The notes beneath the pieces were generated by a model. The model was given only the letters and a program-made list of their open reading frames with translations. It did not search any database and was not told where the DNA came from. DNA of 36,759 nt from Phycisphaerae bacterium (GTDB taxonomy: Bacteria > Planctomycetota > Phycisphaerae > Tepidisphaerales > Tepidisphaeraceae): assembly GCA_041749155.1 (NCBI GenBank), contig JBGTBZ010000111.1, forward strand, positions 1-36,759. Reading direction: 5' to 3'. Shown piece by piece: positions 1,063 through 16,665 of this stretch. Both the position numbers and the translations under genes were made by a program. How positions within the stretch are numbered: the stretch's first letter is position 1; the number at the start of each line of letters is the position of its first letter.

Positions 1063-1503
1063 TCACTTCAGCCTTATAAATGCTTTGACCCTAGCCCACC
1101 GGCTCTGTACTGGAATCGCCGGGGTCGGCATGAATGTGGCCGGTTCTAAAACCGGCGACGGAGTAACAAAGTCCTGGTCGCGCGTGCGCCGGTCGTTCGC
1201 ACGTGCGGCTGCCACGCGTTCATTGGTCCACGGCTGTGCCCAAAGAATGCGATTGCCGCGAATCCAGTAGTGAGACCTGCAGGGAAGGCTCCAACTGCCG
1301 ACCGAGGGATTGATCCAGATAGACTCGCCGTCGAACGTCAGCCGCCACTGCGTGGGGCTCAGCGGGAGATACACTGTTCTCCCGCAGCCACAGCAGCAGC
1401 GATGCGCCGTCGTCCTGTACTCCATCGCGACGTAGAGGACGCCCTCATCGAGCGTCTCGGGGATGAACTCGACGAAGATCGGCCGGAGGTGGCTTTGCTT
1501 CAC
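1063..1503 (-). CDS. Small 4-Cys zinc-ribbon protein, DUF6527-like; third gene of the Ubl cassette
   Basis: The GTG start overlaps the E1 stop (GTGA). The motif pair HRCCCGCG ... NPSVGSWSLPCRSHYWIRGNRILW is what I recall for DUF6527 proteins, which are annotated next to ThiF and multiubiquitin genes. Confidence 0.7.
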   Translation of the reverse strand: MKQSHLRPIFVEFIPETLDEGVLYVAMEYRTTAHRCCCGCGRTVYLPLSPTQWRLTFDGESIWINPSVGSWSLPCRSHYWIRGNRILWAQPWTNERVAAARANDRRTRDQDFVTPSPVLEPATFMPTPAIPVQSRWARVKAFIRLK

Positions 1504-2690
1504 GGGATCTCATCTCCCCGGGTCAGGGCCTGAGCCTCCACGCCGTACGTGCAATGGTGTTCCTTGGCAACGTCTGCATAGAAGCCGCGCAGTTTTTTCC
1601 ATCTGACGACAGCCAGCGCGGCATTCAACGCGTTGAGCTCGGCAATCTGGATGTTCTGGCGGTACTCGTTCTGTTCACTTCGATCCGCAAACGACGCGCG
1701 AGCTCCGAGTCCCCCGGCTCGCCCAGGCATACTGGCGGTGACGCGAACAATTCCGCCCAGGCTGCCGTCGCTGGCGTACAGGCCCATCCCCGTGTCCACG
1801 TAAGGAACACCCCAGGCTTCGAGGGCACCGGCGATGAGCTTGCGCGACGGACCGTCATCGATGCAGATGAACACGAAGGTCATCGGCCGCAGTGATTCGA
1901 TGTTGTCGGCGTCGACGAGGTGCGGGTGCGGCACGACACGTCGGTGCATGTTCGAGTAAATCGCCGTAAGATAATCGGCCTTCTTCGGCTTGGCGCGCAG
2001 AACTTCAAGCGATGCCGCGCCCGGGGAGCGAAACGCGTTATGGGTCAGTTGCTCGTCGCCATCGAAGAGATGGATGTCCTGGACGGGTGTCTTGGCGACG
2101 AAGTCCAGCACGTACGAACCGGTCCCGCCAAGGCCTACGATCGCGACGCGCTCGCCAGCCAGCTTCGCGGCGATCGCCGCGATGTCAGCGCGGCTGGAGG
2201 CCGTATCGGCGTAGTGGAAAGGTGACGCACCCTCCTTGGCATCCGTCGCCGGCGGCGAGAATGATCGGGCCTTCACCGACGGATCAACCACCCGAGCCTG
2301 GCCCGTGAGAATCGCGCAATAGGTTGTGGCCTGATGGTAATAGTTGTCGTACCGTCCCGTTTCTTTCGGCTTCGCCGAGAATGAGTGCCGGGCGGGGAGT
2401 CCCGGCGCAAGCTCAGTGTCGCTGCTCGTGTGCCGGATCTTCTCGATCGGGGTGCCGTCGGCGTTGCAAGGGTAATCGCCATCAAAATGGGCGACGTGCG
2501 TGCTTGGGGCCGTGGTCTGGTCTCCGGCGAGGTCTAGCTTGAAGATAAGTGTGCCGCGCTTGACGGCGCGGCCGTCGCCCACGTAGGGCACGTCGCGGAC
2601 CACGAGGTATCCTGACTGGACCTCCACGTTGTACCCCTCGTCGCGAAGCCGCCGGAGGTCGTCGTTACGATCGATCAGTTTCTGTGACAA
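1500..2690 (-). CDS. ThiF/E1-like adenylyltransferase with an N-terminal E2-like domain
   Basis: Rossmann/ATP motifs VAIVGLGGTGSYVLDF and LFDGDEQLTHNAFRSPG are typical of E1/ThiF/MoeB. The N-terminal ~170 aa (LIDRNDDLRRLRDEGYNVEVQSGYLVVRDVPYV ... THVAHFDGDYPCNADGTPI) carry a His...Pro-Cys arrangement reminiscent of the E2 HPN...Cys site. I chose the TTG start at 2690 (MSQKLIDRND...). The ORF is open up to 2822, so the start is uncertain. Confidence 0.8.
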   Translation of the reverse strand: MSQKLIDRNDDLRRLRDEGYNVEVQSGYLVVRDVPYVGDGRAVKRGTLIFKLDLAGDQTTAPSTHVAHFDGDYPCNADGTPIEKIRHTSSDTELAPGLPARHSFSAKPKETGRYDNYYHQATTYCAILTGQARVVDPSVKARSFSPPATDAKEGASPFHYADTASSRADIAAIAAKLAGERVAIVGLGGTGSYVLDFVAKTPVQDIHLFDGDEQLTHNAFRSPGAASLEVLRAKPKKADYLTAIYSNMHRRVVPHPHLVDADNIESLRPMTFVFICIDDGPSRKLIAGALEAWGVPYVDTGMGLYASDGSLGGIVRVTASMPGRAGGLGARASFADRSEQNEYRQNIQIAELNALNAALAVVRWKKLRGFYADVAKEHHCTYGVEAQALTRGDEIP

Positions 2691-3399
2691 GAAACACCAT
2701 CCTGTTCTTGACGAGGACCGAGCCGCCAGCAACGAGCTCCCCCTCGCGGTTGGCCTTCGGGCCGCGGCTGTACATGACTGTGTAAAGGATGAACGGCTCC
2801 GTCCGCACTGGGTTGAAGGCAAGCGGAAGCACCTGCTCGAACGAAATGGTGCGCCCCCTCCACTCGCGCGGGCGCGCGTTCACGATGATCGTGACCTTGC
2901 GCTCGGTAGTCGGTCGCGTCAAGAACACGGGGCCGTCGGCGAAGCGCACGTTGTCATCGTCGTCGAGCAGCTCATCGAGCGGCGACTCGGAGTCGCGGAG
3001 CAAGTCCGTGTCGTCGTCTACCTCAAAAAGTGCGCGGAGGCTGGCGACGGTCTGATTGCTGCGGGTGACAATCTCCCAGCTGTCGTTGAGCACAAAGGCG
3101 AGCTTCGGGTCCGCATTCGATCGGACGATGTCCTGCTGAGCGCCGCCCGCTATGAGGCGGAACACGTTGCCCTCCGCGAGGTCGACGATCTCGGTCGCCT
3201 TGAAGCCGACATCGTGCCGGCTGTTGTAGTCGCGGACCAGCGTGGCGTTCGGGGGAGCAGATGCCTGGTACAGGATATCGGCAGCCGACAGGCGCTGTCG
3301 CGGCATGGGAACGAGCTTGTCGTCAACAACTGCTGCCCAACGCGGGCTGCCGCTGCCGCGATCCTGCTCAGAAGCACGTAACACGACTTGTTCTGCCAT
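2665..3399 (-). CDS. Multiubiquitin-type protein with about three tandem beta-grasp (Ubl) repeats
   Basis: Three repeats of similar length each end in a hydrophobic strand motif (NVFRLI / GPVFLTRP / NRMVFLVTETDRS), as in the 'multiubiquitin' family. The ATG at 3399 is preceded by AAGAGG. The long upstream part of the 2665..4203 ORF overlaps an opposite-strand gene and has no homology signal. Confidence 0.7.
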   Translation of the reverse strand: MAEQVVLRASEQDRGSGSPRWAAVVDDKLVPMPRQRLSAADILYQASAPPNATLVRDYNSRHDVGFKATEIVDLAEGNVFRLIAGGAQQDIVRSNADPKLAFVLNDSWEIVTRSNQTVASLRALFEVDDDTDLLRDSESPLDELLDDDDNVRFADGPVFLTRPTTERKVTIIVNARPREWRGRTISFEQVLPLAFNPVRTEPFILYTVMYSRGPKANREGELVAGGSVLVKNRMVFLVTETDRS

Positions 3400-3492
3400 G
3401 GTGACAACCTCTTGGTCCAATGACCCGTTTTGAAGACCCACCTGAACCGCGCCTGCCGCGTCGGCTTGCCACGCTGCTTGCCGTTCTCGCCA

Positions 3493-3669: not shown

Positions 3670-4290
3670 TTGCAGGAGCTCCTTGACCTCAGCAGCGAAG
3701 CGCAAGAAACGCTCCTCAAACGGCTTACGCATCACGCTCTGTGCAAGATGCGACGCCTGACGTGGCGCGGCGCTTACGTTGCGCGCGGCGGATCGGTCCC
3801 CGGCGGGTACGAGCCGTATGACTTCGCCATCGACGCGATCAAAAAGGCGATGGATGGAACCAGGCCGTGGAACCGTGCGGAGTACAAGACGCTGGAGGGC
3901 TTTCTTCGCTCGATCATCAACAGCGACATCAGCCACCTGGTCGAATCCGTGGATAACTCCACTGGCCGGAGGCTGGGACCGCAGTCGGGCAAGGACGAGA
4001 CGGTCGGGGCGTACGTTGCTCCCAGCACTGAGCCGGACCCCTTGATCGTGCTGATCGACAAGGAATGGCAGGGTCGTTTCCACGAAGCCGCAATTAAGGA
4101 GCTGAAGGGAGAGGAGTTCCTGATCAAGCTGCTGGAATGCATGGAGGCCGAGATTACCGAGCCCCGAGAGATCGCCGAGCTGCTCGGGACGACCGTCGAT
4201 CAAGTGAACAATGAGAAGAAGAAACTACGCCGCAGGCTCAGCGAACTGCATACGCGCATAAAGCCAGCGGAGAAACGGACACGCTTATGA
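3670..4290 (+). CDS. Sigma-70/ECF-like protein (region 2-like and region 4 HTH)
   Basis: LEGFLRSIINSDISHLVES resembles sigma region 2. EPREIAELLGTTVDQVNNEKKKLRRRL is a typical region 4.2 HTH. The TTG at 3670 is only the first possible start, so the true start is uncertain. Confidence 0.55.
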   Translation: MQELLDLSSEAQETLLKRLTHHALCKMRRLTWRGAYVARGGSVPGGYEPYDFAIDAIKKAMDGTRPWNRAEYKTLEGFLRSIINSDISHLVESVDNSTGRRLGPQSGKDETVGAYVAPSTEPDPLIVLIDKEWQGRFHEAAIKELKGEEFLIKLLECMEAEITEPREIAELLGTTVDQVNNEKKKLRRRLSELHTRIKPAEKRTRL

Positions 4291-4724
4291 GCGATCTGCA
4301 AGTCCATAACAAAGAGGTGTGGGACCGGCTGTTTGACCTGCTCTACGCATGTGACGAATCCGTAACTGATTCCGAGGTAGACACCGACCTGCAGCACGCC
4401 GGGATCGACATGCGGCCGGCGTTCCGGCGCATGCACGAAATGATTGAGCAGGCGAAAGCTCGGCAACAGTTCGCAGATGCTCGCGACACACGGCAATTGA
4501 TGATGGATAGGCTCCGCGCCGTGGTTGGCCCGAAAGTCACCGACCTACGCAACGGCGTGCGCGAGTTCATCGACCGTGTGTTCAGCGGCCCTGAGCAGGT
4601 GGCGCACTACCATAAGTTGGAGAAGGCCGCGAGCGAGGAGGACTTGCAATCGCTTATGGACGACTTGACCAGGCTTGCCGAGTTGCGCAAGACGAAGGAC
4701 CAGGATGGGCCCAAAGCCGAATAG
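4287..4724 (+). CDS. Hypothetical acidic helical protein (candidate anti-sigma or adaptor)
   Basis: Its ATG overlaps the stop of the sigma-like gene (ATGA), and its 3' end overlaps the ImmA start. I recognise no motif. The protein is predicted helical and charged. Confidence 0.45.
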   Translation: MSDLQVHNKEVWDRLFDLLYACDESVTDSEVDTDLQHAGIDMRPAFRRMHEMIEQAKARQQFADARDTRQLMMDRLRAVVGPKVTDLRNGVREFIDRVFSGPEQVAHYHKLEKAASEEDLQSLMDDLTRLAELRKTKDQDGPKAE

Positions 4725-5490
4725 AATCCGGGCCGCTGCCGAGGCACTGAGGTTGTGGAAGCTCTACGGACTTGAGTCGCCGAGGGACCTGGTTCTTGAG
4801 GACTTGGCCATGGCGCGGGGCATCCTGGTGATGGACGGTAGGCTCGACTCCGCGGCGGCCCGGCTGGTGCGCAGCGGCGACATTGGAATTGCCAGGATCA
4901 GCGACCGTATCCGCGAGCCAGGTCGGCGGAAGTTCGCTATCGCGCACGAAATCGGCCATTGGGAACTGCACAAGAAACACTCGCATCTGCTGGCGTGCAC
5001 CGACGAGGACATGCTCGCCCGGTACGGCGCAAGCCCGCTGGAGACTGAGGCGAGCGTCTTCGCGGGTTCATTGCTGATGCCCGATTACCTGTTTGTTGAG
5101 CGCGTGGATGGGCGACGACCAACGCGGGCGGTGATTAACGACTTGTGCGACTACTTCGGCACCACATTCACTGCCACCGCGTTGCGTTACGTCGAGACGT
5201 CGAACGACTACTACGTCTTTGTGCTGGCTGAGAACAACCGCGTCCGCTGGTGGCGGGCGAGCGATTCGTTCGGCGAGCATAAGCTGTGGATCGACAACAA
5301 GACCGTGCTGCCTAGAGACAGCGCCGCCGCGTCCTTCTTCCGTGGCGAGTCCGTGCCACCTGACCCCCAGCCCATGGATCTCCGCGCCTGGCTCGGCAAC
5401 TTGCCTAGTATCGAATCGGACACAATCATCGAGCAGACCTTTCCCCTTCCTGCATACGGCCAAGTTGTTAGCATTTTGTGGTTGCCTTAG
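4705..5490 (+). CDS. ImmA/IrrE-family zinc metallopeptidase (DUF955) with a C-terminal domain
   Basis: The FAIAHEIGHWELH HExxH motif followed by ETEASVFAGSLLMP is the ImmA/IrrE signature. The ATG at 4705 (MGPKPNRIRAAAEAL) is in frame with the 4675 ORF. Confidence 0.85.
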   Translation: MGPKPNRIRAAAEALRLWKLYGLESPRDLVLEDLAMARGILVMDGRLDSAAARLVRSGDIGIARISDRIREPGRRKFAIAHEIGHWELHKKHSHLLACTDEDMLARYGASPLETEASVFAGSLLMPDYLFVERVDGRRPTRAVINDLCDYFGTTFTATALRYVETSNDYYVFVLAENNRVRWWRASDSFGEHKLWIDNKTVLPRDSAAASFFRGESVPPDPQPMDLRAWLGNLPSIESDTIIEQTFPLPAYGQVVSILWLP

Positions 5491-6785
5491 GGCTCAGCGG
5501 CGGATTGGCGGCGTGCCTCGTGAACGCCGACAGGTACTGTGCTGTGAGCACCACCTGTGCGTACCGGTTCCGTGGCGTCGATCGGATGGTGTTGTGGACT
5601 GGCTGAAGAGCCCCCCCATGCCGTTGCCAAGAGAGTGACAATAGCTCGGACGTTAGGAATTCCGGTCGAGGGGTCGCGCCCGATCGGTCGTGCTTTGACC
5701 TCATGCCAGAGCTGTTGTGCGCTAGCGGGCGCATCCTGATAGCGGACAAAGAACAGCGATTGATGCCGCTCATGCAGTGAACGCCAATCGGCTCGTTTCA
5801 ACCAGTCGGGCTTCGGGTCAGCGATGATGACGGCCGCCGACGCTGCCGCTGCAGCATCGAAGGCTTCGCGAGCTGTTCCTGGTGCCCACCGTGCTTTGGG
5901 TGGGGCGACGGACACCGCAACAAGTAACTTCGCCTGGACCAGATGCTCAACCCATTTGGGCAAGCGCTCGGACATGAGCCCTCGCGGAACCCAAGCTACA
6001 ACCTTTGTTCCCTGAGCAATCGCAGATTCGATCACCTCACGCGTTCGGTTGCCAGTCAGGATGAAAGCTAAGACGACTGAAGTTTGATGCGCGAGGGCTT
6101 CCGCCAGAGCCCGAACCACGACGGCCTCACGCTCAGCAGGCTTGAATGATGACACAAGCGCTACTGTCGCGAATCGAAGCAGTTCTGATGGTCCGTGATA
6201 GAACACCCGACGGGCATGTGTTTCGCGAAGGCCATCGGGATACAAAGGGTTATCGGGGTCCAACGCGCCCACATCAGCGCGTTCAAGTTCATCTGGGTCG
6301 ATCTGCTGGTCAGCCTCGGGGACCTTCGCCCCGATTGCGCGGGAATCCTTGGGCTCAAACACGCTGACTATCGCCGGAGTGTCGCTCAGGTAAGTTTGAA
6401 TCATCGCGGACACGCGGCCCCAATCCAGCCCACCGTGCCCGCAACCGAGAGCCGGCAATGCGACCGAAACCCCGACGTAATCCTTCAGGTATTCCCGAAG
6501 CGCTTCGAGACCCGCTTTAATGTCCTCGTATCGCGACTTGTCGCGCCAATGCCGCTTCGTGGGGAAGTTGATAACCCAGTCGCCGTGGAGGCGCTTCCAA
6601 ACGTGCAGCTTTCCCGGCTTGATACGGCCGGCTTCGCACTCGCGCTTATACTCGCGGAACATCTCGGGGTAGCGTTCCTTGAACGCGAGCGCAACCCCGG
6701 CCCCCATCACGCCTACGCAGTTGACGGTGTTCACGCGCGCGTCGAAGGCGCGACCGAACATGTCGCCTGAAGTGAACTCGATCAT
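5487..6785 (-). CDS. darG: DarG-like macrodomain fused to a DprA/SLOG-like Rossmann domain
   Basis: The N-terminus NTVNCVGVMGAGVALAFKERYPEMF ... WVINFPTKRHWRDKSRYEDIKAGL ... ALPALGCGHGGLDW is near-canonical DarG macrodomain. The C-terminal half (TVALVSSFKP ... VLAFILTGNRTREVIESAIAQGTKVVAWVPRGL ... LLVAVSVAPP ... AVIIAD) has the strand/helix pattern of DprA/SLOG folds. Confidence 0.8.
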   Translation of the reverse strand: MIEFTSGDMFGRAFDARVNTVNCVGVMGAGVALAFKERYPEMFREYKRECEAGRIKPGKLHVWKRLHGDWVINFPTKRHWRDKSRYEDIKAGLEALREYLKDYVGVSVALPALGCGHGGLDWGRVSAMIQTYLSDTPAIVSVFEPKDSRAIGAKVPEADQQIDPDELERADVGALDPDNPLYPDGLRETHARRVFYHGPSELLRFATVALVSSFKPAEREAVVVRALAEALAHQTSVVLAFILTGNRTREVIESAIAQGTKVVAWVPRGLMSERLPKWVEHLVQAKLLVAVSVAPPKARWAPGTAREAFDAAAAASAAVIIADPKPDWLKRADWRSLHERHQSLFFVRYQDAPASAQQLWHEVKARPIGRDPSTGIPNVRAIVTLLATAWGGSSASPQHHPIDATEPVRTGGAHSTVPVGVHEARRQSAAEP

Positions 6786-8197
6786 TCGTCGTCACCTGCT
6801 GCGCCGCCGGCGCGCTTGTCGAGTTCGGTTACCACCCACGATCGCAGCGCTGCGACCGCAGCCTCGTCCCACCAACCTGCATTCACCGCAGTCACATCCG
6901 CTTTTGCCAATGCTATCAGCATGTCCATGTCGCGTGAGTCGGTGACCACATCCAACAGTTGGTCCCGATCCCGACCCCGCCCAATGATGTCGCCGACGAG
7001 GTCGTGGTAGCAGACCAGCATGACCAGGACTCGCGCCGACCGCGGCCTCATTGTACCGACGTTGTCTCTGAGGTACTGAGCGACCGCCTCCGCCCCGGTG
7101 ACAGGGTGATCCAGATCAGCCTTTTGACGATACCCGTTGTCCTTCCACCGCTCCTTCGGCCCCTTCCCCACGTCGTGGAAGTACGCGGCGATCTCACACA
7201 ATAGCTTGTCGGTGTCGTTGAGCGCCCGATACTTCGCGACGGCGAGCAGGTGCTGCACGACGCGCTGCGTATGCTGACCCACGTCCTCCTTGTGCATGAC
7301 GTTGTCAGACTTCAGCCCGAAGAGTTCGCCCACGAGCGGGACGGACGCCGGATTGTCACGGAGGCGATCGCGAAGCCGAAAGAGATTCTTGAAGCGCGGT
7401 GCGGCGGCTTGGCCAATGTGATCGGCCAGGCCGCGGTAGCTTGCGTCGTAGCGCGCCAGGGTGAAACCGGGACCCGTAACGAGCGACTCATTGGGGGCCT
7501 GTGGGTATTTAGTCAAGTAGTGTCGCCCACTGAACTGGACGGTCGGAGCCGGCAACCCTGCTTCCCGATACCTCCGCAGAACTTGATCTCGGAAGTGGTC
7601 GTTCCAGACAATAATGTGGGAGATGCGGTCGACGGGCAGATGTCGGTGGATCAAGACCTCTGCCTGCCGCGCCTGCTTTTCTGCGTCCGAGGGCATGGAC
7701 CACTTCAGGCTGTCAATCGCTTGCCAGTTGAGCCTGGCGAGATCGGCGGGATCTGAATAGAACCTCGGAGGCGGATCGGTGTTAGCGGAGGCGGATGTGA
7801 ACACCACATCATCCCGCTCAACGATCTCGATCGGAACCGCGAAGTAGATCAATTCCTGTTGGTCGACATTCTTCGCCCGGACGACGGCCATGAGCATCGA
7901 CGAGCGCTTACAGAAGTAGAATGGCACGTAATCGTGGACGACCCCGCCCGGCGCGCAGGTCACGGGCATCGTGGACCGGCGATGCTGAATAGACTGCTCG
8001 GCGATCGACCGGTGCCGAATGCGCCGGTCCTGCTGCAAGTGGCAGCACAGGAGGCCGTGCTGCAGGACACTTGGCAGGTTCTCCAAATGGCAGAAATGGT
8101 AGGCGTAACGGCCCCGATATTGCGCTGGAACTGGCATCGGTAAACTGCTGTGGAATAAAGCCTTGCAGCGAACTACGCCGGGCTGCGGACTCCCCAT
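6782..8197 (-). CDS. darT: DarT (DUF4433) DNA ADP-ribosyltransferase fused to a C-terminal HD phosphohydrolase domain
   Basis: YHFCHLENLPSVLQHGLL, GGVVHDYVPFYFCKRSSML and QAEVLIHRHLPVDRISHIIV are DarT hallmarks, including the catalytic Glu context. The C-terminal half has H...HD...D motifs (HTQRVVQHL, AAYFHDVGKG, LDHPVTGAE, VCYHDLVGD, LAKADV). The stop overlaps the darG-like start (ATGA). Confidence 0.85.
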   Translation of the reverse strand: MGSPQPGVVRCKALFHSSLPMPVPAQYRGRYAYHFCHLENLPSVLQHGLLCCHLQQDRRIRHRSIAEQSIQHRRSTMPVTCAPGGVVHDYVPFYFCKRSSMLMAVVRAKNVDQQELIYFAVPIEIVERDDVVFTSASANTDPPPRFYSDPADLARLNWQAIDSLKWSMPSDAEKQARQAEVLIHRHLPVDRISHIIVWNDHFRDQVLRRYREAGLPAPTVQFSGRHYLTKYPQAPNESLVTGPGFTLARYDASYRGLADHIGQAAAPRFKNLFRLRDRLRDNPASVPLVGELFGLKSDNVMHKEDVGQHTQRVVQHLLAVAKYRALNDTDKLLCEIAAYFHDVGKGPKERWKDNGYRQKADLDHPVTGAEAVAQYLRDNVGTMRPRSARVLVMLVCYHDLVGDIIGRGRDRDQLLDVVTDSRDMDMLIALAKADVTAVNAGWWDEAAVAALRSWVVTELDKRAGGAAGDDE

Positions 8198-8726
8198 TTT
8201 ATGGGCGGTGCAGCTCCCCGTTCAAGGCGTTCACTTCCATCACGGGCAGACAGTGCCGGCCTAGTCTCCTTGCTGAAGGAGGGGATCAACGATGGCTTCC
8301 TTACCCCCTTTCCGCGTAAAGGAGATAGCAGCACGCCACTTCACCGGAGAAACATCTGTGCCGGGAACCATCGCCAGCCCCTGGCCACCTAGACGCGCTC
8401 CGGGTCTCATCCAGGCCCCACGAGCACAGTCACCACCCAGGCGTACCGCTGCGCCACGTCGGCCCGGTCCCTGCTCTGCAGGCAACGCCTGGCTCTGCTC
8501 CAGGATGATCCGCGCTTGGCCGGGCAGATGCTGGAAGGTTAAAACGCAATAGATGGATCTGGGTGACGATGACAGCTGCAACGTGGCGCCCGGCTCCCTG
8601 GGCGTCCGATTGTCTAGAGCCAGCACCTTGGGAGTACCAAAAGCTCCGGAAGCAGACGGTCTGTCGGGCTCTGCCGACATCGCCGCGTGTCGGCGGGATC
8701 GCGTGTCGATCGGTTGCTCAAGCTGC

Positions 8727-9371
8727 TCACGAGGCTGAGGAATCTGATGCTGGCACCCTCGAGCGTCCAAGCAGATCCACGAGATCCTGTGGGCGATCGA
8801 TATCTCGCCAGCGTCGAGCGATCGCAACCGGGAGGGCAGTCGCCGCGGCGTTCCGAACGACCTGAGACATCTCCCGGCCGCTGGACCAGTCGACCCGGTT
8901 GAGAACCGGTTCGAGGTCGAGTCCGGCGGCAACGCCCAGACACCAGAAGCCACCGTCGTCCGTCGGTCCCAGCACCACACCGGTTCCGGACCGCAGAAGC
9001 TCCAGGGCACTCTCGATGTGGCCTCGCGGAAGATCGGGGGTGTCGCACCCGATGAACATCGTCGAACTGCTCTTTCCGACGTCGCTGTAGGCGGCTATGA
9101 GCCGCGAGCCCAGATCGCCCGCCGCTTGGGGGGCGACCTCAACGTCGCCGTAATGCGCGGATGCTTCCCCCGTCGCTTCGGGAGGGTCTACGCAAAGCAC
9201 AAGGCGCCCGACAGGGTTCGGCCGAAGCGGCCTGAGTCGACTAAGCGTTTCGTGCACGAAGGCGTCGTGGAGCGCCGCCGCCTGCTCAAAGCTGAGCGGC
9301 GGGACCAGCCGCGTCTTAACGCGGCCGGGAACTGGCATCTTGCCCATGACGATGACGCAGGGATTCGACAT
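8727..9371 (-). CDS. DUF2064/TIGR04282-type glycosyltransferase (rSAM/arsenosugar-associated transferase 1)
   Basis: VIVMGKMPVPGRVKTRLVPPLSFEQAAALHDAF ... IGCDTPDL ... LGPTDDGGFWCLG is the DUF2064 pattern. Confidence 0.7.
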   Translation of the reverse strand: MSNPCVIVMGKMPVPGRVKTRLVPPLSFEQAAALHDAFVHETLSRLRPLRPNPVGRLVLCVDPPEATGEASAHYGDVEVAPQAAGDLGSRLIAAYSDVGKSSSTMFIGCDTPDLPRGHIESALELLRSGTGVVLGPTDDGGFWCLGVAAGLDLEPVLNRVDWSSGREMSQVVRNAAATALPVAIARRWRDIDRPQDLVDLLGRSRVPASDSSAS

Positions 9372-9384
9372 CAGCTTGCAACCT

Positions 9385-10965
9385 TCACCTACGTCGCCAG
9401 CTAAGGAATCGGGTGAATAGGCGCTTCATCCAGGGCCTCAGGCGCGTCCTCTGGTAATCGTCAGCCACCTTGCGGAACACCTCCGCCTGCGTCGGGTAGG
9501 GATGGATGGTCCGGCCCAGCGTCTTGAGCCCGGCGCCGGCGACCATGGCCAGCGTAATTTCCGAGATCATCTCTCCGGCATGGCGGGCGACAAGCGTGGC
9601 GCCGAGGATGGTGTCGCCGCCATTCCTAACGTGCACCTTCAAAAGACCCTCTTCCTCGCCATCAAGCATGGGTCGATCGACCTCCGACAGCGGTTTCGCG
9701 AACGTTCTGACGTCGATGCCCCGCTGCCGCGCCTCATGCTCGGTCAGGCCCACGTGGGCGATCTCAGGGTCGGTGTACGTGCACCACGGAACGGTCAGAG
9801 CGCTCGCCTTCGCTCGCCCGAAGAACAAAGCGTTCTGGATCACGATACGGGCGAGCGCGTCAGCCGTGTGTGTGAACTTGTACTTGAAGCAGACGTCGCC
9901 GGCGGCGTAAATTTGCGGGTTGCTCGTGCGAAGGTAATCGTTCACAGTCACGCCGTGGCGGTCGTGCGCGACGCCGGCCCTGCCCAAGTCAAGCTCCTCG
10001 ACATTCGGCGTGCGACCCGCGGCGACGAGAATCTCGTCCACCTCGATCTGCTGATGCTCTCCGTCGCATTGCAGGGCAATAATCTTCGTTCCGTTGCCGT
10101 GGCTGACCTGCGCTGCCTTGCCGCCGCAGATGATGCGGACATCATCGCGGCTAAGCGCCCGCCGCACGATATCGGCGGCGTCGGGATTTTCCTTGCTCAG
10201 GATCTGCTTCTCCGATTCGATGAGCGTGACCTTTGAACCAAGGCGGGCGAATGCCTGCGCCATTTCGCAGCCGACGGGCCCCGCGCCGAGGACCGCCAGC
10301 CGCGGCGGAAGTTCCACGAGCGAGAAGACGGTCTCGTTGGTCAGGTACCCGGACTCCTCAAGGCCCGGCACTGGCGGCGCCGCGGGACGGCCGCCGGTCG
10401 CGATGCAGGCCCGGGCGAACTCGAGCCGAGCTCCCCGGACCTCGACGGCATCACGCGACACGAAGCGAGCCTTGCCGATGAACACGTCCACGCCCAGCTC
10501 CCGGAACCGAGCCGCCGAGTCGTGGTGACTGATCTTTGCGCGCAGTCTCCGCATGCGCCTCATGACGCCGGGGAAGTCCACCGTGACCCCGCCGTCGATC
10601 CGGACGCCGAAGCGCGACGCAGCGCGAACGTCAGCCGCAGCCCTCGCACAGCGGATCAGCGCCTTGCTCGGCACGCAACCGACGTTCAGGCAATCGCCGC
10701 CCATCAGCCGCGACTCGACAAGCGCCACCTTCGCGCCCAAGCCCGCGGCTCCGGCGGCCGTGACCAGACCCGCGGTGCCGCCACCGATCACCACCAGGTT
10801 GTACCGCCCCGTCGGCCTCGGATTCTCCCACTGGAGCGGATGGGTGTTCTGCTGTAGCAGTCGGTTGTAGGTGTCGAACGGCCGCAGCGCCTGCAACTCG
10901 CCGGTCAGGTCAAGCTCCGGATCGGTTTCCTCATCGAGGCAGGGGGTAGGGGTTTCCATGATCAA
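9385..10965 (-). CDS. Class I pyridine nucleotide-disulfide oxidoreductase (mercuric reductase/dihydrolipoamide dehydrogenase-like, no C-terminal Cys pair)
   Basis: FAD motif VVIGGGTAGL, redox disulfide GGDCLNVGCVPSK, NAD motif LGAGPVGCE and a dimerisation-domain HPYPT motif. A paralog is at 36457..36759. Confidence 0.85.
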   Translation of the reverse strand: MIMETPTPCLDEETDPELDLTGELQALRPFDTYNRLLQQNTHPLQWENPRPTGRYNLVVIGGGTAGLVTAAGAAGLGAKVALVESRLMGGDCLNVGCVPSKALIRCARAAADVRAASRFGVRIDGGVTVDFPGVMRRMRRLRAKISHHDSAARFRELGVDVFIGKARFVSRDAVEVRGARLEFARACIATGGRPAAPPVPGLEESGYLTNETVFSLVELPPRLAVLGAGPVGCEMAQAFARLGSKVTLIESEKQILSKENPDAADIVRRALSRDDVRIICGGKAAQVSHGNGTKIIALQCDGEHQQIEVDEILVAAGRTPNVEELDLGRAGVAHDRHGVTVNDYLRTSNPQIYAAGDVCFKYKFTHTADALARIVIQNALFFGRAKASALTVPWCTYTDPEIAHVGLTEHEARQRGIDVRTFAKPLSEVDRPMLDGEEEGLLKVHVRNGGDTILGATLVARHAGEMISEITLAMVAGAGLKTLGRTIHPYPTQAEVFRKVADDYQRTRLRPWMKRLFTRFLSWRRR

Positions 10966-11008
10966 ATCACCTGACTGCGAACTTGAGAGAATCAGTGCAC
11001 TGCGAGTC

Positions 11009-12631
11009 TCAGTTTTCCGCCGGCGGCACGTTCGCGGCGCTGTTGAGCGACCAGTCGTAGTCCAGGAACGTGACGTCCGGCTTCTGGCCGGATTCCAGGG
11101 CCGTCTTCAAGTCAGGGTTGTAACGCGCGGCGTAGGCCAGCACTGAACCGGCAACCTGCTCGAAATCACCGCCATACCAGCGGTAAAGGCTCGTCAGCCA
11201 CACCCGGTCGCGATCGGGGTCGTAGCGGAACCAGCGCGGATGCTCGTGAACGTAGCGCGCCTGCTCCTCGAGCTGTTCCTCCAGCCGCACGGCGGAATAC
11301 GCATTCCGCCGAAGCGGCGGACAGCCCACGGCGGCGCAGACGAGCGCGAAGTGAATCCGCGGCTCCCGGAAGTTCGGTCGAATCTGCTTGTGCTCGATGT
11401 CGTCCAGGCTCCAGGTGTGGCCACCGACCTTCCATCGCCGGTCCTTCCATCGCCGGCCGGCCGGGATATCCTTGATCTCCTCGAGGGGGTAGTGTTCAAG
11501 GATCAGCTCCAGGGTAAAGGCGTTGTAGGCGTTGATGAGCAGCGCGAGCCTCTCGTCGCGGCTCATCTCGTCCATGGGCGCATCGGCGAGTGAACCGATA
11601 TATCGCTGGAGCTGCTCGCGTTGTTGCGCAAGGGCCTCGTAGTCCACACCGCCGCGCTCGTTCACGTGGCGGGCGAGAAGCTCATCCAGCAGTGAATGGT
11701 CGAACCCGGGCCCGTCCGACTCGGACGCCTCGTACGTCTCCCGCAGCTCCACCTCCGGCGCGGCCCCAAACAGTCTGCCGAGGATCTTTCTCGATGTTTC
11801 CGGCCTCAGTTGGGCGCAGCCGGCGGCGGCAACGAGGAGCAGGGCGACTCCGCAGAGTGCGGCGGTGCCCCAGGGGAACCCGCGGATGGCAACTGCGGTC
11901 TCGGGCGTTTCTGGCGACGGCTCACTTTCGGGCGGAAGTACTTTCTGTTCGCGCAGCTTCCGCCGTGCAAGGATCGTGACGTATATGGAAACGGCGATGG
12001 TGGCGAGCAGGCCTGCACCAAGCAGCATCCACTCGATCCACGACCGCTCCCGGCCGCCGGCCAGGGCGGTGCCCGTGACGTGGCCGATGTAGACGTACAT
12101 GACCGTTCCCGGGAGCATGGCGATCCAACTTGCCAGCACGTACCGCCCGAAACCAACGGGCGTCAGGCCATAGAGGTAGTTCTGGAGATTGAACGGCACG
12201 ACTGGCGAGAGGCGCAACAGGGCGACAATCCTCCAGCCGCCTTCACCGATTGCGGCGTCGATCGCCGCCAGCCTCGGCCGGCGGCGGACCAGGTCGGCAA
12301 CCTGCCGGCGCGCCAAATAACGGGCGATCAGGAAAGCCGCCGCCGCGCCGAGGGTGGAGCCGAGGGAGACGAGAATCGTGCCGAGGAGAATGCCGAATAT
12401 GGCGCCGGCCGCGACCGTGAGCACGATGCCTGGCACGAAGAGGACCGTGGCGAGAACGTAGAGGGCGACGAAGATGACTGGTCCGAAGTGCCCGAGGCCG
12501 CTGATCCACTCCTCCAGTGTCGCGGCCAGATCCTGCAGGGGAAGAAGACGCCCGAGGAGAATCAGAGCAGTCAGGATGAGTGCGACGGCCACCCACCTCG
12601 CAGCGAGAACCTGTCGTTGGGACAACTGCAT
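11009..12631 (-). CDS. TVP38/TMEM64 (DedA-like) membrane domain fused to a DUF547 domain
   Basis: The N-terminus has multi-TM SNARE_assoc-type motifs (FVPGIVLTVAAGAIFG ... RLSPVVPFNLQNYLYGLT). The C-terminus has LALLINAYNAFTLELI ... HFALVCAAVGCPPLR, typical of DUF547. Confidence 0.75.
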   Translation of the reverse strand: MQLSQRQVLAARWVAVALILTALILLGRLLPLQDLAATLEEWISGLGHFGPVIFVALYVLATVLFVPGIVLTVAAGAIFGILLGTILVSLGSTLGAAAAFLIARYLARRQVADLVRRRPRLAAIDAAIGEGGWRIVALLRLSPVVPFNLQNYLYGLTPVGFGRYVLASWIAMLPGTVMYVYIGHVTGTALAGGRERSWIEWMLLGAGLLATIAVSIYVTILARRKLREQKVLPPESEPSPETPETAVAIRGFPWGTAALCGVALLLVAAAGCAQLRPETSRKILGRLFGAAPEVELRETYEASESDGPGFDHSLLDELLARHVNERGGVDYEALAQQREQLQRYIGSLADAPMDEMSRDERLALLINAYNAFTLELILEHYPLEEIKDIPAGRRWKDRRWKVGGHTWSLDDIEHKQIRPNFREPRIHFALVCAAVGCPPLRRNAYSAVRLEEQLEEQARYVHEHPRWFRYDPDRDRVWLTSLYRWYGGDFEQVAGSVLAYAARYNPDLKTALESGQKPDVTFLDYDWSLNSAANVPPAEN

Positions 12632-12666
12632 CGCTGGAATCTGCAGGCAGGCTCCATGCTCGAGGT

Positions 12667-13689
12667 CTACTTCTTCGTCGATTCGTCGGCGGCCTTAGCG
12701 GGTGAACCGTAGATGTCCGTGTCGGGATGGAACGCCGCCCAGGTGAACCAGAAGGTGTGCACGACCTGCGCCTCCGGCGGCAATTCCAGGATTTCAACGC
12801 CCGATTTACTTGCCTTCAGCACGACCCGCTTGCCAGCGAGCTCGTCTGTTACCACCGCACCTTCTGCCTGTTGGATCCTAGCCAGCGGATATGCACGCGC
12901 ATGTGCGCCTATCTTGATCCCGACCACCGCCTCTTTCTTCGGCAGCCGATCGTCCTGACGCCGGACATGGAACATCAGCCGATCGGATGCGAAATAATCG
13001 GCGTACGGATTGCCGGAGTAGTTGCGTGTATGGCCTGTATCCAGCGTGACAACAGTGCCGTCCGGGTGCGCTTTGCGCCACTCCGCGAGCGTTTGCATGG
13101 CGAAGGGCAGGCTAGCGAGCGACCTGCCCGCATGAGGTCCACTGATCGCGCCGAGACCGACTTGCGACCAGAGCGCCTGGTCCGTCCGGTCGTAAAGCAG
13201 GACGTTCGAGTTGTGCAGCAGGCCGCTGATGCCGAACTCCAGTTTCTTTTCCTCGAGCCGGCGATCCCAGACGGTCGCGGAATCGCACAGCGGGCAATAG
13301 ACCACGGCGATGGGCGCTCCGCCGAGCGTGTCGTTAATCGCTTCGTGCCAGTTCAGGACCTTCAGGGGGTAGGCGCGCGACTCGCCTTTCACGGTGACAC
13401 CGATCACCCGATCCTCATCGAGCAGTCCCGTCGCTTCGTCCAATGGGGCGGTCTTGGGATCTACAAGGGCTGGGATCCCGTCCTTTGGTGGCCCGCCAGC
13501 CTGGATCTCTTCGCGCGGGACCTGCAGGTTCGAGAGGTCGAAGCCACGACCTTCCAGATCTGCCGCTTCAGGCCGCGCGGGAGGCTGTGGCATTGCCAGT
13601 ACCGCTTCCGGCCAGATCCGTGGCAGGACAAGGGCGGCAACGACGGCCAGCATGATCAATGCGACCACTGTCCGGATGGCGATGCGCAT
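12667..13689 (-). CDS. DUF3179 family protein (signal-anchored)
   Basis: DGIPALVDPK, ESRAYPLKVLNWHEAINDTLGG, VYCPLCDSATVWDRR and FGISGLLHNSNVLLYDR. The ATG at 13689 is preceded by GAGGA, so the 13752 start was rejected. Confidence 0.75.
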   Translation of the reverse strand: MRIAIRTVVALIMLAVVAALVLPRIWPEAVLAMPQPPARPEAADLEGRGFDLSNLQVPREEIQAGGPPKDGIPALVDPKTAPLDEATGLLDEDRVIGVTVKGESRAYPLKVLNWHEAINDTLGGAPIAVVYCPLCDSATVWDRRLEEKKLEFGISGLLHNSNVLLYDRTDQALWSQVGLGAISGPHAGRSLASLPFAMQTLAEWRKAHPDGTVVTLDTGHTRNYSGNPYADYFASDRLMFHVRRQDDRLPKKEAVVGIKIGAHARAYPLARIQQAEGAVVTDELAGKRVVLKASKSGVEILELPPEAQVVHTFWFTWAAFHPDTDIYGSPAKAADESTKK

Positions 13690-13762
13690 AGCATGATCCT
13701 CGGTGTTGCCGATATCGAAGGCCCTGGAGCACGCTGCCGCGTGACGATCCAACCCCTTCCCT

Positions 13763-14263
13763 TCAGCGACCCAGCGAACGCTCGATCTCGCGAGCCAGCT
13801 CTTCCTCGCTATGGGTCTTTGTCAGCCTCCCGAGCAACTGCTTTGTCTTTGGATCGATGAGCAGCATGAAACCCGTCTTCCGCTCGTTCTCCTGAAATTC
13901 GTCGCCGAAGCCGAGCAGGTTGGCCAGCAGTCGCGACTTGTACTTCGTCGTGTCATCCGTCATGTCGAACCGCGTAACCACGATCGGCTGATCATCGAAG
14001 CGCTTCATCACCGGCTCGGGGTTCGGCTCGAGCACCTTGCACGAAGCGCACCAGTCGGCGTAGAAAAGGATGCCGAGCACCTTCGGCACCGGCTCTTTCA
14101 GCTCGGACTTGCGGGTGTCGTCGCCGTCTTGAGCCCCGGAGCCCTGCTGAGCAAACCCCGTGGCGGACAGCAGTGCCATCGCCATCAGCGCAATGAGCAG
14201 GGGCCGGGCGACAGCCGTCGGCAATGGGCAATGTTGTGGCGTGGGCAGCGTGGTGGTTCGCAT
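13763..14263 (-). CDS. Secreted thioredoxin-fold protein (WCASC)
   Basis: Signal peptide plus FYADWCASCKVLEP CxxC in a thioredoxin-like context. Confidence 0.7.
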   Translation of the reverse strand: MRTTTLPTPQHCPLPTAVARPLLIALMAMALLSATGFAQQGSGAQDGDDTRKSELKEPVPKVLGILFYADWCASCKVLEPNPEPVMKRFDDQPIVVTRFDMTDDTTKYKSRLLANLLGFGDEFQENERKTGFMLLIDPKTKQLLGRLTKTHSEEELAREIERSLGR

Positions 14264-14301
14264 GGGCGCTCCGGTAAGGACCTGTCGATGTTTCTGCGAA
14301 A

Positions 14302-14331
14302 GGATGTGCCGCGCCCCGCCACCCTTATTCC
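14302..14331 (-). promoter_or_regulatory. Recurrent motif copy: GGAATAA-N15-GCACATCC, upstream of the thioredoxin-like gene
   Basis: The minus strand reads GGGAATAAGGGTGGCGGGGCGCGGCACATCCTTTCG, about 40 nt upstream of the ATG at 14263. Confidence 0.5.
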
Positions 14332-14795
14332 CCCGGGACTGGAGAAGCTCCCAGTGCGAAGGTCGGATGCAGCCGAAATTTATTCAAGCCAAAGCCCCGC
14401 AGCAGGAGGAGCTCGAGATCGTGCTGATTCGGAGGCAGCGACGGACCGATCCGGTTGGGGAGCAGGTCCAGCGACCGCGCGGCGTCGATTCCGTAGCCTC
14501 GATTCAACCTGCGGATGCCTCAATGCTCTCGCGGTAGACGTGACGCCCACGTTGTCTATCGACGTACTCTCCAGGTAACAGGCAGCGAAGCTACAAGTTG
14601 AACCTGATGGTCACGGTAAAACGCCGGCAGGTCCCCGTAGCCCTCGCGCAGGAGGATCGTGAGGTTTGTGCGAACCATTACCTCCAGCTCCTGCTGACGC
14701 GCGGCGGCGACGAATCGCCGCAAGTGCGGGGTCATCTCCGGGGCGCCCCCCGTGATATGGCCGACCTCAAAACGGAGAAAGAAGTTTATGCCTGG
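14325..14795 (-). pseudogene. arsS: Decayed internal fragment of a second arsS (radical SAM) copy
   Basis: My minus-strand translation gives ITGGAPEMTPHLRRFVAAARQQELEVMVRTNLTILLREGYGDLPAFYRDHQVQLVASLP / CYLE / VDRQRGRHVYRESIE / IRRLNRGYGIDAARSLDLLPNRIGPSLPPNQHDLE across at least 3 frames. This parallels ArsS residues ITGGAPEMHRHFRRF...LPPPQKQLE (19038..20042). The CxxxCxxC N-terminus and the Cys-rich C-terminus are absent. Confidence 0.7.
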
Positions 14796-14804
14796 CTATT
14801 GAGA

Positions 14805-15755: not shown

Positions 15756-15837
15756 CTCGACGCCCCTCAGAGCCGCCCGCCTGGGGTTCGCCGGGGACGG
15801 CCAGCGCCGCAGCCGGCCACACCTCCGTGGTTACTGA

Positions 15838-16650: not shown

Positions 16651-16665
16651 GTGCATCGGCCGGCA

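Follow-up and report, generated by a model that had tools for sequence, protein, structure and literature searches.

To our knowledge, DarTG is one of few systems known for ADP-ribosylating DNA bases. It serves as a model for phage defense and for reversible nucleic-acid ADP-ribosylation. In Thermus aquaticus DarG, K80 is the catalytic lysine of the macrodomain, and the canonical C-terminal domain (C-domain) of DarG inhibits DarT through binding (PMC5179494). The partner and accessory modules of DarT toxins vary between subfamilies; DarTG1 pairs DarT1 with NADAR, and DarHTG comprises DarT, a UvrD-like helicase, and an ARH-like DarG3 (PMC13069673). DprA-fold antitoxins occur in ShosTA and PsyrTA. 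The DprA-like antitoxin ShosA has both ssDNA and RecA as binding partners (PMC12961424, PMC11961720), and its neutralization of the toxin depends on these contacts and not on contact with the toxin itself (PMC12961424).

The locus analyzed here lies in a Phycisphaerae bacterium (assembly GCA_041749155.1, contig JBGTBZ010000111.1), and the whole 36,759-nucleotide stretch that was analyzed is hereafter termed the window. Two open reading frames on the minus strand, 6782–8197 and 5487–6785, share 4 bp (ATGA, 6782–6785) and encode a candidate toxin and its partner (Table 1). The initial annotation had proposed that the toxin is a DarT fused to an HD phosphohydrolase and that the partner is a DarG macrodomain fused to a DprA/SLOG-like domain in place of the usual DarG C-terminus; each of these three assignments was borne out. 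The motifs that it quoted were all found in the translations, both for the toxin (YHFCHLENLP, HDYVPFYF, QAEVLI, FHDVGKG, DHP, YHD, and KAD) and for the partner (NTVNCVGVMGAGVA, INFPTKRHW, and GCGHGGLDW). The AlphaFold models that it had called for were confident for both the toxin (pLDDT 93.5, pTM 0.88) and the partner (pLDDT 85.6), and the former confidently predicts that DarT and HD are joined in a rigid interdomain arrangement.

The ATG at 8197 was considered as the toxin start and is probably not used. All homologs, and the cluster representative, begin at Met21 of the open reading frame (MPVPAQY…), and position 8137 is therefore the likely true start. A weak match to a promoter, at 8225–8196, fits a start at 8137; one such site was seen against a chance expectation of 1.2, such that the site is statistically unsupported and a positional hint only.

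Table 1. Predicted features of the toxin and antitoxin genes, in window coordinates.
Feature	Position	Strand	Details
Weak sigma-70-like promoter match, TTGAAC-18-TAAAAT	8196..8225	-	Just upstream of operon
DarT–HD toxin gene	6782..8137	-	451 aa from probable start 8137; frame open to upstream ATG at 8197
DarT ADP-ribosyltransferase domain	7556..8101	-	ORF aa 33–214; predicted catalytic Glu in QAEVL is E160 (451-aa numbering)
HD phosphohydrolase domain	6818..7354	-	aa ~262–440 (451-aa numbering)
Macro–DprA antitoxin gene	5487..6785	-	432 aa; start overlaps toxin stop by 4 bp
DarG-type macrodomain	6330..6785	-	aa 1–152; Lys77 in NFPTKRHW
DprA-fold (SLOG-superfamily) Rossmann-like domain	5610..6233	-	aa ~185–392; in place of canonical DarG C-terminal domain
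Disordered C-terminal tail of antitoxin	5490..5606	-	aa 394–432; pLDDT below 50

The N-terminal part of the toxin matched Pfam DarT (PF14487) over residues 33–214 (E 2e-45, 155 bits versus a threshold of 22.5) and the NCBIfam equivalog toxin_DarT (NF048013; 162.5 bits versus a cutoff of 150). A profile search against PDB sequences recovered Thermus DarT 7omv at 4.9e-39, and Foldseek aligned the toxin model to 7omy with an E-value of 4.5e-14 and a TM score of 0.84. The glutamate of the QAEVL motif aligns with position 160 of 7omv and was retained in 81/81 subfamily members. As shown by computation, the predicted catalytic residues of the domain are thus intact, and its nearest counterpart is the Thermus enzyme, an ADP-ribosyltransferase specific for thymidine in ssDNA.

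The C-terminal part of the toxin is a bona fide HD domain, matching Pfam HD (PF01966; ORF residues 307–379, E 3e-8, 34.2 bits versus a threshold of 22) and HDIG (TIGR00277; 32.1 versus a cutoff of 27.6); the Pfam model also matched 14/14 homologs of the toxin. The ligand set is intact (H282, H321-D322 in HDVGKGP, H344 in DHP, H378-D379 in YHD, and D414 in KAD), and the pattern H…HD…H…(H/D)D…D is conserved in the DarT–HD family. Moreover, H321, D322, K325, H344, and D414 were kept in 81/81 DarT–HD sequences across phyla with an overall identity of ~45%. No close solved relative was found when a profile of the HD region alone was searched against PDB sequences (best match 2o6i, E 0.35). Foldseek of the whole toxin chain was dominated by DarT and returned no significant HD-fold match, with HD-type hits to GppA, dNTPase, and lpg1496 only at E > 0.2. 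The likeness to nucleotidyltransferase-associated HD domains suggested by the initial annotation has weak support: matches to the GlnD and CCA-adding-enzyme HD regions were sub-threshold, and the nearest outgroups of the HD region were PolyA_pol-head+HD and HD+P-loop-kinase proteins. Weak PADLOC matches to Cas3 HD models were also observed. Among 1.84 billion cluster representatives, only 121 matched the HD region, which in most of them spans residues ~250–440 of a total of ~445. The HD family of DarT–HD proteins therefore occurs essentially only together with DarT.

The N-terminal half of the partner is a DarG-type macrodomain. PADLOC DarG matched it at E 2.6e-62, yet only over model positions 1–152 of 329, and NCBIfam antitoxin_DarG matched with 221 bits, under its cutoff of 250, over positions 1–154 of 338 only. 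Pfam Macro matched at 1.4e-19, a macrodomain profile recovered 5m3i (1e-49) and 5m31 (1.8e-47) from the PDB, and the macrodomain of the partner model gave Foldseek TM scores of 0.87–0.89. Lys77 is invariant among homologs and, in the alignment, occupies the position of Lys80, the catalytic residue in Thermus aquaticus DarG.

The remainder of the partner carries a DprA-like fold. Foldseek of the partner model recovered DprA 3uqz (E 4e-12) and ShosA 8zva (6e-12), as well as H. pylori DprA (4ljk) with TM scores of 0.70–0.72; profile matches to 3uqz, 9vzo, and 8zva were obtained at E ~5e-3. PADLOC PsyrA, a DprA-like antitoxin, matched residues 194–323 at 2e-6. Pfam DprA (PF02481) matched 8/14 partner homologs (best 3.7e-9) and gave no match at E ≤ 0.1 to the window's own partner protein, the DprA identity of which comes from fold and homologs. 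With a median pI of 9.5 and a net charge of +4, the DprA-like domain is basic; the HD domain of the toxin is acidic. We considered whether the C-terminal half might be a diverged canonical DarG C-domain and rejected this, as DarG models cover N-terminal halves only and hhalign against 53 canonical C-domains detected no homology (0.4% probability). By these comparisons, the DprA domain is a non-homologous replacement of the canonical DarG C-terminal domain. The C-terminal tail of the antitoxin is unconserved in the homolog alignment, and the closest relatives carry a fused DUF1156 methyltransferase here.

Such fusions point to a link with Hma, a BREX-related system that comprises the HmaA SNF2 helicase, the HmaB DUF1156 methylase, and the HmaC DUF499 ATPase. 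Of 80 related loci, 11 have the pair embedded in an Hma system, as do the two closest relatives; there, the macro–DprA module forms the N-terminus of the HmaB methylase. No Hma genes were found in the window, and the window copy is a free-standing two-gene module outside such a system. The pair adjoins a CapP-like gene (PADLOC capP, 2.7e-50), a sigma-like gene, and a gene encoding 145 aa, which are convergent with the pair and divergent from a Multi_ubiq/ThiF operon on their other side. A scan of 160 related loci detected CapP or sigma neighbors in just 3, and no cyclase or other signal-generating gene was conserved beside the pair across 80 loci.

Searches for the toxin yielded 448 matches at E < 1e-5, the top 120 of which are all ~445 aa. 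The DarT–HD architecture was identified in at least 149 species-level genomes from many phyla, including 11/5,426 complete E. coli genomes, on plasmids (among them K. pneumoniae IncF and A. tumefaciens conjugative plasmids), and on 14 viral contigs (IMG/VR). The idea that the architecture is rare was therefore discarded: the subfamily is large, and current tools already label its members simply as DarTG. HD-fused DarT domains formed one pure clade (103/103) in a simple neighbor-joining tree without support values, separate from short DarTs (~27% identity), the sample of which was seeded with a macro pattern taken from the DarT–HD/macro–DprA family. This suggests that the HD fusion had a single origin and that its bearers are a large monophyletic DarT subfamily. 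A full-text literature search, with LeRoux 2022 and de Souza & Aravind 2012 outside its scope, found no description of the DarT–HD/macro–DprA subtype, consistent with the initial annotation, which had called the architecture uncharacterized. Of its concern that this might be a common and already studied DarTG subtype, the first part proved correct and the second found no support in this search. DarT–HD with macro–DprA is thus a widespread DarTG subtype that is apparently unstudied so far.

The HD and DprA domains are closely coupled. A macro+DprA-like gene lies directly downstream in 64/80 DarT–HD loci. In the reverse direction, 8/8 independently found macro+DprA-like genes adjoin a DarT–HD gene, and DarGs of canonical length adjoin ~50 short DarTs and no HD-bearing DarT. 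Whether HD-fused DarTs always pair with macro–SLOG partners, as the initial annotation had asked, can thus be answered for most loci, but the rule has exceptions. Six Bacteroidales loci encode DarT–HD beside a canonical DarTG/DarG with the DprA domain absent, and ~7 loci, mostly from Chloroflexota, have no neighboring macro gene; not every locus, therefore, requires the DprA domain. Overall, the toxin HD and antitoxin DprA domains co-occur almost perfectly, and independent addition of the two was rejected on the basis of this co-variation.

The best explanation, which we hold with moderate confidence, is that the pair is a two-gene DarTG2-type toxin–antitoxin/anti-phage module of a distinct subfamily, in which the HD domain acts on the product or substrate of DarT and the DprA-like domain counters the HD domain. 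DarT would ADP-ribosylate thymidines in the ssDNA of replicating phage, or in that of the host upon loss of the antitoxin, and the HD domain would work in cis on the product or substrate of this reaction. As a best guess, its target would be the ADP-ribosylated ssDNA that DarT itself produces, where it would most likely be a phosphodiesterase on the DNA-linked ADP-ribose or the adjacent DNA backbone and would deepen the lesion. The macrodomain, of the ADP-ribosyl-glycohydrolase type, would strip intact ADP-ribose. The DprA-like domain would be the HD-specific countermeasure, bringing the antitoxin to ssDNA and promoting RecA-dependent repair, as ShosA does; binding to the acidic HD domain may be a second role, in place of the lost DarT-binding C-domain. 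In Hma-fused lineages, DarT–HD would be an abortive-infection effector of the Hma (DUF499) system.

It is possible, if unlikely, that DarT–HD is a two-step DNA-modifying toxin, in which DarT ADP-ribosylates an ssDNA thymidine and a binuclear HD phosphodiesterase cleaves the ADP-ribose pyrophosphate to yield AMP and a phosphoribosyl-thymidine adduct that phage or host macrodomains could not remove. Trimmed lesions of this kind would not be erasable and would therefore need bypass or recombination repair, and the antitoxin would therefore need a DprA-type, RecA-loading, ssDNA-binding domain. SidE effectors of Legionella carry a mART and a phosphodiesterase on one polypeptide, the latter of which cleaves the ADP-ribose pyrophosphate and leaves a phosphoribosyl adduct. 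If true, the two-step scheme would parallel SidE-type phosphoribosylation at the level of DNA and would introduce a new type of base modification into immunity.

Two toxin–antitoxin pairs fused end to end would also account for the one-to-one co-variation of HD and DprA-like domains. The HD domain would then be an independent toxin that needs no ADP-ribosylation, such as an ssDNA nuclease resembling Cas3 or a hydrolase of dNTPs or nucleotides; the DprA-like domain would be its antitoxin, via binding or repair, and the macrodomain would handle DarT. The weak similarity to Cas3 HD models is consistent with this arrangement, as are the pairing of DprA-like antitoxins with unrelated toxins in ShosTA and PsyrTA and the electrostatic complementarity of an acidic HD and a basic DprA domain. 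However, a self-sufficient toxin would be expected elsewhere too, and proteins with this HD family hardly ever lack DarT. The six Bacteroidales loci, where DarT–HD has a canonical DarG alone nearby, also argue against it, and the rigid interdomain geometry predicted for the toxin fits cooperation better than concatenation. We consider two concatenated pairs improbable.

We doubt strongly that the HD and DprA-like domains are a mere docking pair, with a non-catalytic HD, that replaces the inhibitory contact between DarT and the DarG C-domain. The invariance of H321, D322, H344, and D414, together with K325, across phyla implies selection on catalysis rather than on a binding surface, even though the canonical DarT-inhibiting C-domain is missing and the two domains co-vary and have opposite net charges. 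Very unlikely, too, is a regulatory or sensor module in which the HD binds or hydrolyzes a small nucleotide (an alarmone, cyclic nucleotide, or NAD-derived product) to gate DarT in infection, with a nucleotide instead of DNA as the ligand of the DprA-like (SLOG) domain: the HD region has weak similarity to GlnD and HDIG signaling-type HD regions, and SLOG-superfamily domains were reportedly proposed as nucleotide sensors by Burroughs et al. in 2015, but no signal-generating gene is conserved beside the pair across the 80 loci and the partner domain is basic and matches DNA-binding DprA proper, not LOG-type SLOG enzymes.

Annotation pipelines now lump a large subfamily that is phylogenetically coherent as "DarTG". 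Its second strictly conserved enzymatic center and its recombination-mediator fold imply a chemical or damage-handling step that is absent from studied DarTG. The near-perfect co-variation of HD and DprA provides a clear genetic hypothesis, and members in E. coli and on a Klebsiella plasmid allow direct tests. The joining of the antitoxin module with Hma methylases suggests a way in which a toxin–antitoxin effector can be wired into a BREX-related, restriction-like system.

Compared with known systems, the proposed combination of an ADP-ribosyltransferase and a phosphodiesterase in one protein is analogous to SidE, whereas the substrate of SidE is ubiquitin and not DNA, and Foldseek gave no evidence of homology between its phosphodiesterase and the HD domain, with lpg1496 appearing only at E 0.45. 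ShosTA and PsyrTA share with the window pair a DprA-fold domain in the antitoxin, but their toxins are of the phosphoribosyltransferase type, not DarT or HD, and they are without a macrodomain. DarTG1 and DarHTG resemble the pair in joining a DarT toxin to subfamily-variable modules. However, the antitoxin enzyme of the window pair is a macrodomain and not NADAR or ARH, the toxin itself bears the accessory activity, predicted to be that of a phosphohydrolase rather than the helicase of DarHTG, and DarT1 (8baq) was a much weaker match to this toxin (Foldseek E 1.8e-6, 14% identity). With DarTG2, as known from Thermus aquaticus, M. tuberculosis, and E. coli, the pair has in common the DarT fold and catalytic glutamate, a TARG1-like DarG macrodomain with its catalytic lysine, and overlapping genes in the order toxin then antitoxin; by structure as well as by sequence, its toxin matches Thermus DarT best. 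It differs from DarTG2 in the C-terminal HD phosphohydrolase of ~230 aa that is added to the toxin and in the antitoxin, where a non-homologous DprA-fold domain stands in place of the canonical DarT-binding C-domain. The window pair is accordingly filed as a variant within DarTG2.

The two-gene architecture proposed in the initial annotation, a DarT toxin fused to an HD phosphohydrolase and a DarG macrodomain fused to a DprA/SLOG-like domain, was confirmed by open reading frames (ORFs), domain models, and predicted structures, and all motifs quoted there were found in translations of the window. The two ORFs share 4 bp (ATGA). A DarT domain was identified at residues 33–214 of the toxin (Pfam PF14487, E = 2e-45; PADLOC DarT, 3.4e-49), which scored 162.5 bits against the NCBIfam toxin_DarT equivalog (cutoff of 150). 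Homologs uniformly begin at the position of Met21 of the ORF, suggesting that the true start is probably at 8137; catalytic residues are numbered from this start. An AlphaFold model of the toxin, built with a 32-sequence alignment, is confident, including the predicted relative placement of both domains, since pLDDT was 93.5 and pTM was 0.88. Over its N-terminal half, the model overlays the structures of Thermus DarT (7omy; E = 4.5e-14, TM = 0.84) and Mtb DarT, whereas guanine-specific DarT1 was a far weaker structural match. A toxin profile matched 7omv at 4.9e-39, with the glutamate of the QAEVL motif falling on the E160 position, and E160, Y70, M81, and D92 were each present in 81/81 family members.

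The HD domain was identified at residues 307–379 (Pfam PF01966, E = 3e-8, 34 bits versus a cutoff of 22) and also exceeded the cutoff of the HDIG model (32.1 versus 27.6). Pfam HD was matched by all 14 homologs tested. Among 81 family members from many phyla, H321, D322, K325, H344, and D414 were invariant, H282 and D379 were each present in 80, and position 378 held H in 64 members and D in the other 17. The metal ligands are retained, which rules out a degenerate HD domain, and their conservation shows that they have been under strong purifying selection. We take the H…HD…H…H…D ligand pattern to be typical of binuclear HD phosphodiesterases. An HD-only profile detected no related solved structure among PDB sequences (best E = 0.35), and all HD-type matches in a whole-chain Foldseek search of the toxin model were non-significant, such that no HD subfamily was assigned.

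The partner matched DarG models (PADLOC, 2.6e-62; NCBIfam, 221 bits) only in their N-terminal macrodomain half (positions 1–152 of 329 and 1–154 of 338, respectively), and for this reason fell below the NCBIfam full-length cutoff of 250. In the AlphaFold model of the partner (pLDDT 85.6; disordered tail at residues 394–432), the macrodomain matched those of Mtb and Taq DarG (E ~1e-14, TM = 0.87–0.89), and Lys77 (NFPTKRHW) aligned with the catalytic Lys80 of TaqDarG. Catalytic centers of the DarT2/DarG type are intact in both proteins. Residues 194–323 weakly matched PsyrA, a DprA-like antitoxin (2e-6), and the C-terminal domain matched the structures of DprA (3uqz, 4e-12), Helicobacter pylori DprA (TM = 0.70–0.72), and the DprA-like antitoxin ShosA (8zva, 6e-12). 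Pfam DprA was reached by 8/14 homologous C-terminal domains. A diverged canonical DarG C-terminal domain was ruled out by hhalign, which returned a probability of 0.4% against 53 canonical C-terminal domains and 100% for a split-family positive control. Together with the N-terminal restriction of the DarG matches, this bears out the earlier proposal that a DprA-like domain replaces the usual C-terminus of DarG. The antitoxin tail lies exactly where the closest relatives run on into a fused methyltransferase; it may be what is left of a lost fusion or, by analogy with the unstable C-terminus of ShosA (PMC11961720), a degron.

The association between the two additional domains was evaluated in a forward set of 80 genome loci seeded on DarT–HD and a reverse set of 80 metagenome loci seeded on the DarG-type macrodomain, with the full partner alignment as seed. 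In the forward set, a strict HMM search identified a macro plus DprA-like gene directly downstream of DarT–HD in 59 loci, and a further five encoded a diverged DprA-like domain (E = 5e-8 to 6e-5). Six Bacteroidales loci (L048, L060, L065, L071, L074, and L078) encoded a second, short DarT after DarT–HD, followed by a canonical-length DarG without a DprA-like domain; the catalytic residues of DarT–HD were all intact in these loci. No macro gene was found adjoining DarT–HD in eight loci, one of which was at a contig end and six of which were of a Chloroflexota type (L042–L044, L072, L073, and L075, mostly Chloroflexota). In these six, DarT H68 and N119 were substituted and E160 and the HD ligands were kept, and they may form a sub-clade whose transferase activity is altered or lost. 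In the remaining two loci, a macro gene was present with an unmatched C-terminal domain: L003 encodes a macro–HmaB fusion in which a DprA-like domain was not detected, and L039 runs into a contig end. In the reverse set, all eight macro plus DprA-like genes were beside an HD-bearing DarT; the canonical DarGs of ~350 aa were beside short DarTs in ~50 cases and beside an HD-bearing DarT in none. Across the two sets, HD on the toxin and the DprA-like domain on the antitoxin are shown to co-vary. Metagenome locus L105 (480–2928) alone had a DprA-like domain in the absence of HD: there, a short DarT and a macro gene are accompanied by a DprA-like domain encoded as a separate ORF.

An exhaustive phmmer search of 1.84 billion cluster representatives with the HD region as query returned only 121 matches, in most of which the domain spans about residues 250–440 of a protein of ~445 aa. 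Longer exceptions were still DarT–HD proteins with extra N-terminal modules (e.g., LRR–DarT–HD), and a few proteins of ~215 aa comprised HD alone. Because the match set consists mostly of DarT–HD proteins, this HD family is shown to occur almost exclusively with DarT, with a DarT-dependent distribution. Among the representatives, P0262 (932 aa) comprises leucine-rich repeats, DarT, and HD, and P0306 and P0310 are DarT–HD proteins carrying N-terminal extensions of 150–240 aa, suggesting that sensor modules are sometimes fused directly onto the DarT–HD toxin. The giant proteins P0241 (4589 aa) and P0295 (1621 aa) matched a 45-residue HD piece around HDxGKGP in 39 and 10 stretches, respectively, and may be repeat proteins or assembly artefacts. 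The weakest, outgroup-like matches were HD proteins with a P-loop kinase (AAA_33) and one PolyA_pol-head plus HD protein, both of which are nucleic-acid or nucleotide phosphoesterase contexts.

DarT2 attaches ADP-ribose to thymidine in ssDNA, and the DarG macrodomain reverses this modification. The macrodomain alone suffices as an antitoxin, with the C-terminal domain of DarG adding inhibition through binding (PMC5179494), and DprA-like ShosA neutralizes its toxin via ssDNA and RecA (PMC12961424, PMC11961720). HD occurs with DarT and practically nowhere else, and the two are predicted to be rigidly joined. HD would most likely act on what DarT makes or binds, namely ADP-ribosylated ssDNA, possibly by trimming the ADP-ribose pyrophosphate or by cutting DNA nearby. 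The DprA-like domain would be the matching countermeasure, through ssDNA targeting and RecA-dependent repair. At its core this domain is basic, with a median pI of 9.5 and a net charge of +4; the core of HD is acidic, at pI 5.3 and net −8, and canonical DarG C-terminal domains are near neutral; the DprA-like domain might possibly also dock on the acidic HD. One rival to action on ADP-ribosylated ssDNA is a nucleotide-sensing module. A second rival, in which HD is a toxin in its own right and is paired with a dedicated antitoxin domain, is disfavored by the absence of the HD family from other contexts. A purely structural docking pair is likewise disfavored, given the conservation of the HD ligands.

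A word-indexed search recovered 448 relatives, the best 120 of which were all 440–460 aa, contained both Pfam domains, and were from Rhizobiales, Myxococcota, Desulfobacterota, Planctomycetota, and other taxa. A scan of one genome per species identified a relative in 149 species, including Pseudomonadota, Bacteroidota, Bacillota, Chloroflexota, Acidobacteriota, Planctomycetota, and one archaeal MAG. Full-length copies were encoded on a Klebsiella pneumoniae IncF plasmid (beside repE), a conjugative Agrobacterium tumefaciens plasmid, and a Sinorhizobium plasmid, where they are annotated merely as 'DarT family protein' and 'macro domain-containing protein.' Among 5,426 complete E. coli genomes, 11 encoded relatives of the Klebsiella pair, and the pair was present on 14 IMG/VR contigs. 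The sole match in the phage database was a short Thermus phage DarT; the HD-fused form was not found there. A neighbor-joining tree of 150 DarT domains placed all 103 that are fused to HD in one pure clade; identity averaged 0.45 among clade members and 0.27 between them and short DarTs.

Of the 80 DarT–HD loci, 11 had an HmaA SNF2 helicase upstream and an HmaC DUF499 ATPase downstream, both components of the DUF499-centered, BREX-related Hma defence system. The partner in these loci is 1,200–1,650 aa, with macro–DprA forming the N-terminus of the HmaB DUF1156 methyltransferase, whereas the DarT–HD pair in the window is free-standing. The two closest relatives of the window toxin (63 and 60% identity) have the Hma arrangement, for which no description was found in the literature searched.

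To the right of the pair are housekeeping-like genes encoding DUF2064, a pyridine-nucleotide-disulfide oxidoreductase, and a VTT/DUF547 protein. To the left, a trio of genes (sigma-like, 145-aa, and CapP-like) is convergent with the DarT–HD pair, the CapP-like and antitoxin stops overlapping by 4 bp, and divergent from a Multi_ubiq and DUF6791/ThiF operon that resembles Bub/Bil-type bacterial ubiquitination-like defence operons. A CapH/CapP module is as a rule transcribed divergently from the operon under its control, sometimes includes a sigma factor, and is frequent beside Bub ubiquitination-like operons (bioRxiv 10.1101/2022.04.27.489752; PMC13373217). Since the geometry favors the Multi_ubiq/ThiF operon on its other side, the CapP/sigma module more probably belongs to that operon than to the DarT–HD pair; the CapP/sigma association recurs in only 3 of 160 related loci scanned. 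The 145-aa protein, in which an HTH match was not found, could be an anti-sigma-type CapP substrate. In locus L153 (5360–9081), sigma-like and CapP-like genes come after a canonical short DarTG and share its strand; Cap-type modules thus recur near DarTG loci. No tRNA genes or significant promoter or terminator signals delimiting the DarT–HD module were found. Taken together, this region resembles a defence island.

Coordinates of the DarT–HD pair, its neighbors in the window, and Hma-embedded relatives
Feature	Position	Strand	Remarks
DarT–HD toxin ORF	6782–8197	−	471 aa; upstream of partner ORF
Macro–DprA partner ORF	5487–6785	−	432 aa
Antitoxin disordered tail (aa 394–432)	5490–5606	−	39 residues, non-conserved
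CapP-like M78 protease gene	4675–5490	+	Trio member; PADLOC capP 2.7e-50
Gene for 145-aa protein	4287–4724	+	Left of pair; trio member
Sigma-70/ECF-like gene	3670–4290	+	Left of pair; trio member
Multi_ubiq (PF14452) protein, probable	~2665–3414	−	Ubiquitin-like conjugation operon 1500–3414
DUF6791 + ThiF/E1-like ORF	1500–2822	−	DUF6791 1.7e-53
Hma-embedded DarT–HD (locus L002)	4344–17292		Also L004, L005, L007, L008, L019, L030, L045, L163, L164

Subtypes described in the searchable literature comprise DarTG1 (NADAR), DarTG2 (macro), and DarHTG/DarG3. Nothing on an HD-fused DarT or a macro–DprA DarG was found in that literature, where a passing prior mention is possible, in agreement with the view that this architecture is uncharacterized; domain models, structures, and conserved ligands likewise support its interpretation as a double fusion. 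This is a widespread and coherent subtype that lends itself to experiment, with tractable members such as the E. coli LR-28 locus and K. pneumoniae p4-KP21300 (WP_117121977.1 and WP_117121976.1), and its architecture implies a second, as yet unstudied step in the chemistry. The window system would work like DarTG2, with which it shares the DarT and macrodomain characters, but its antitoxin departs from DarTG2 in the canonical DarG C-terminal domain. The pair is best described as a distinct DarTG2-derived subfamily.
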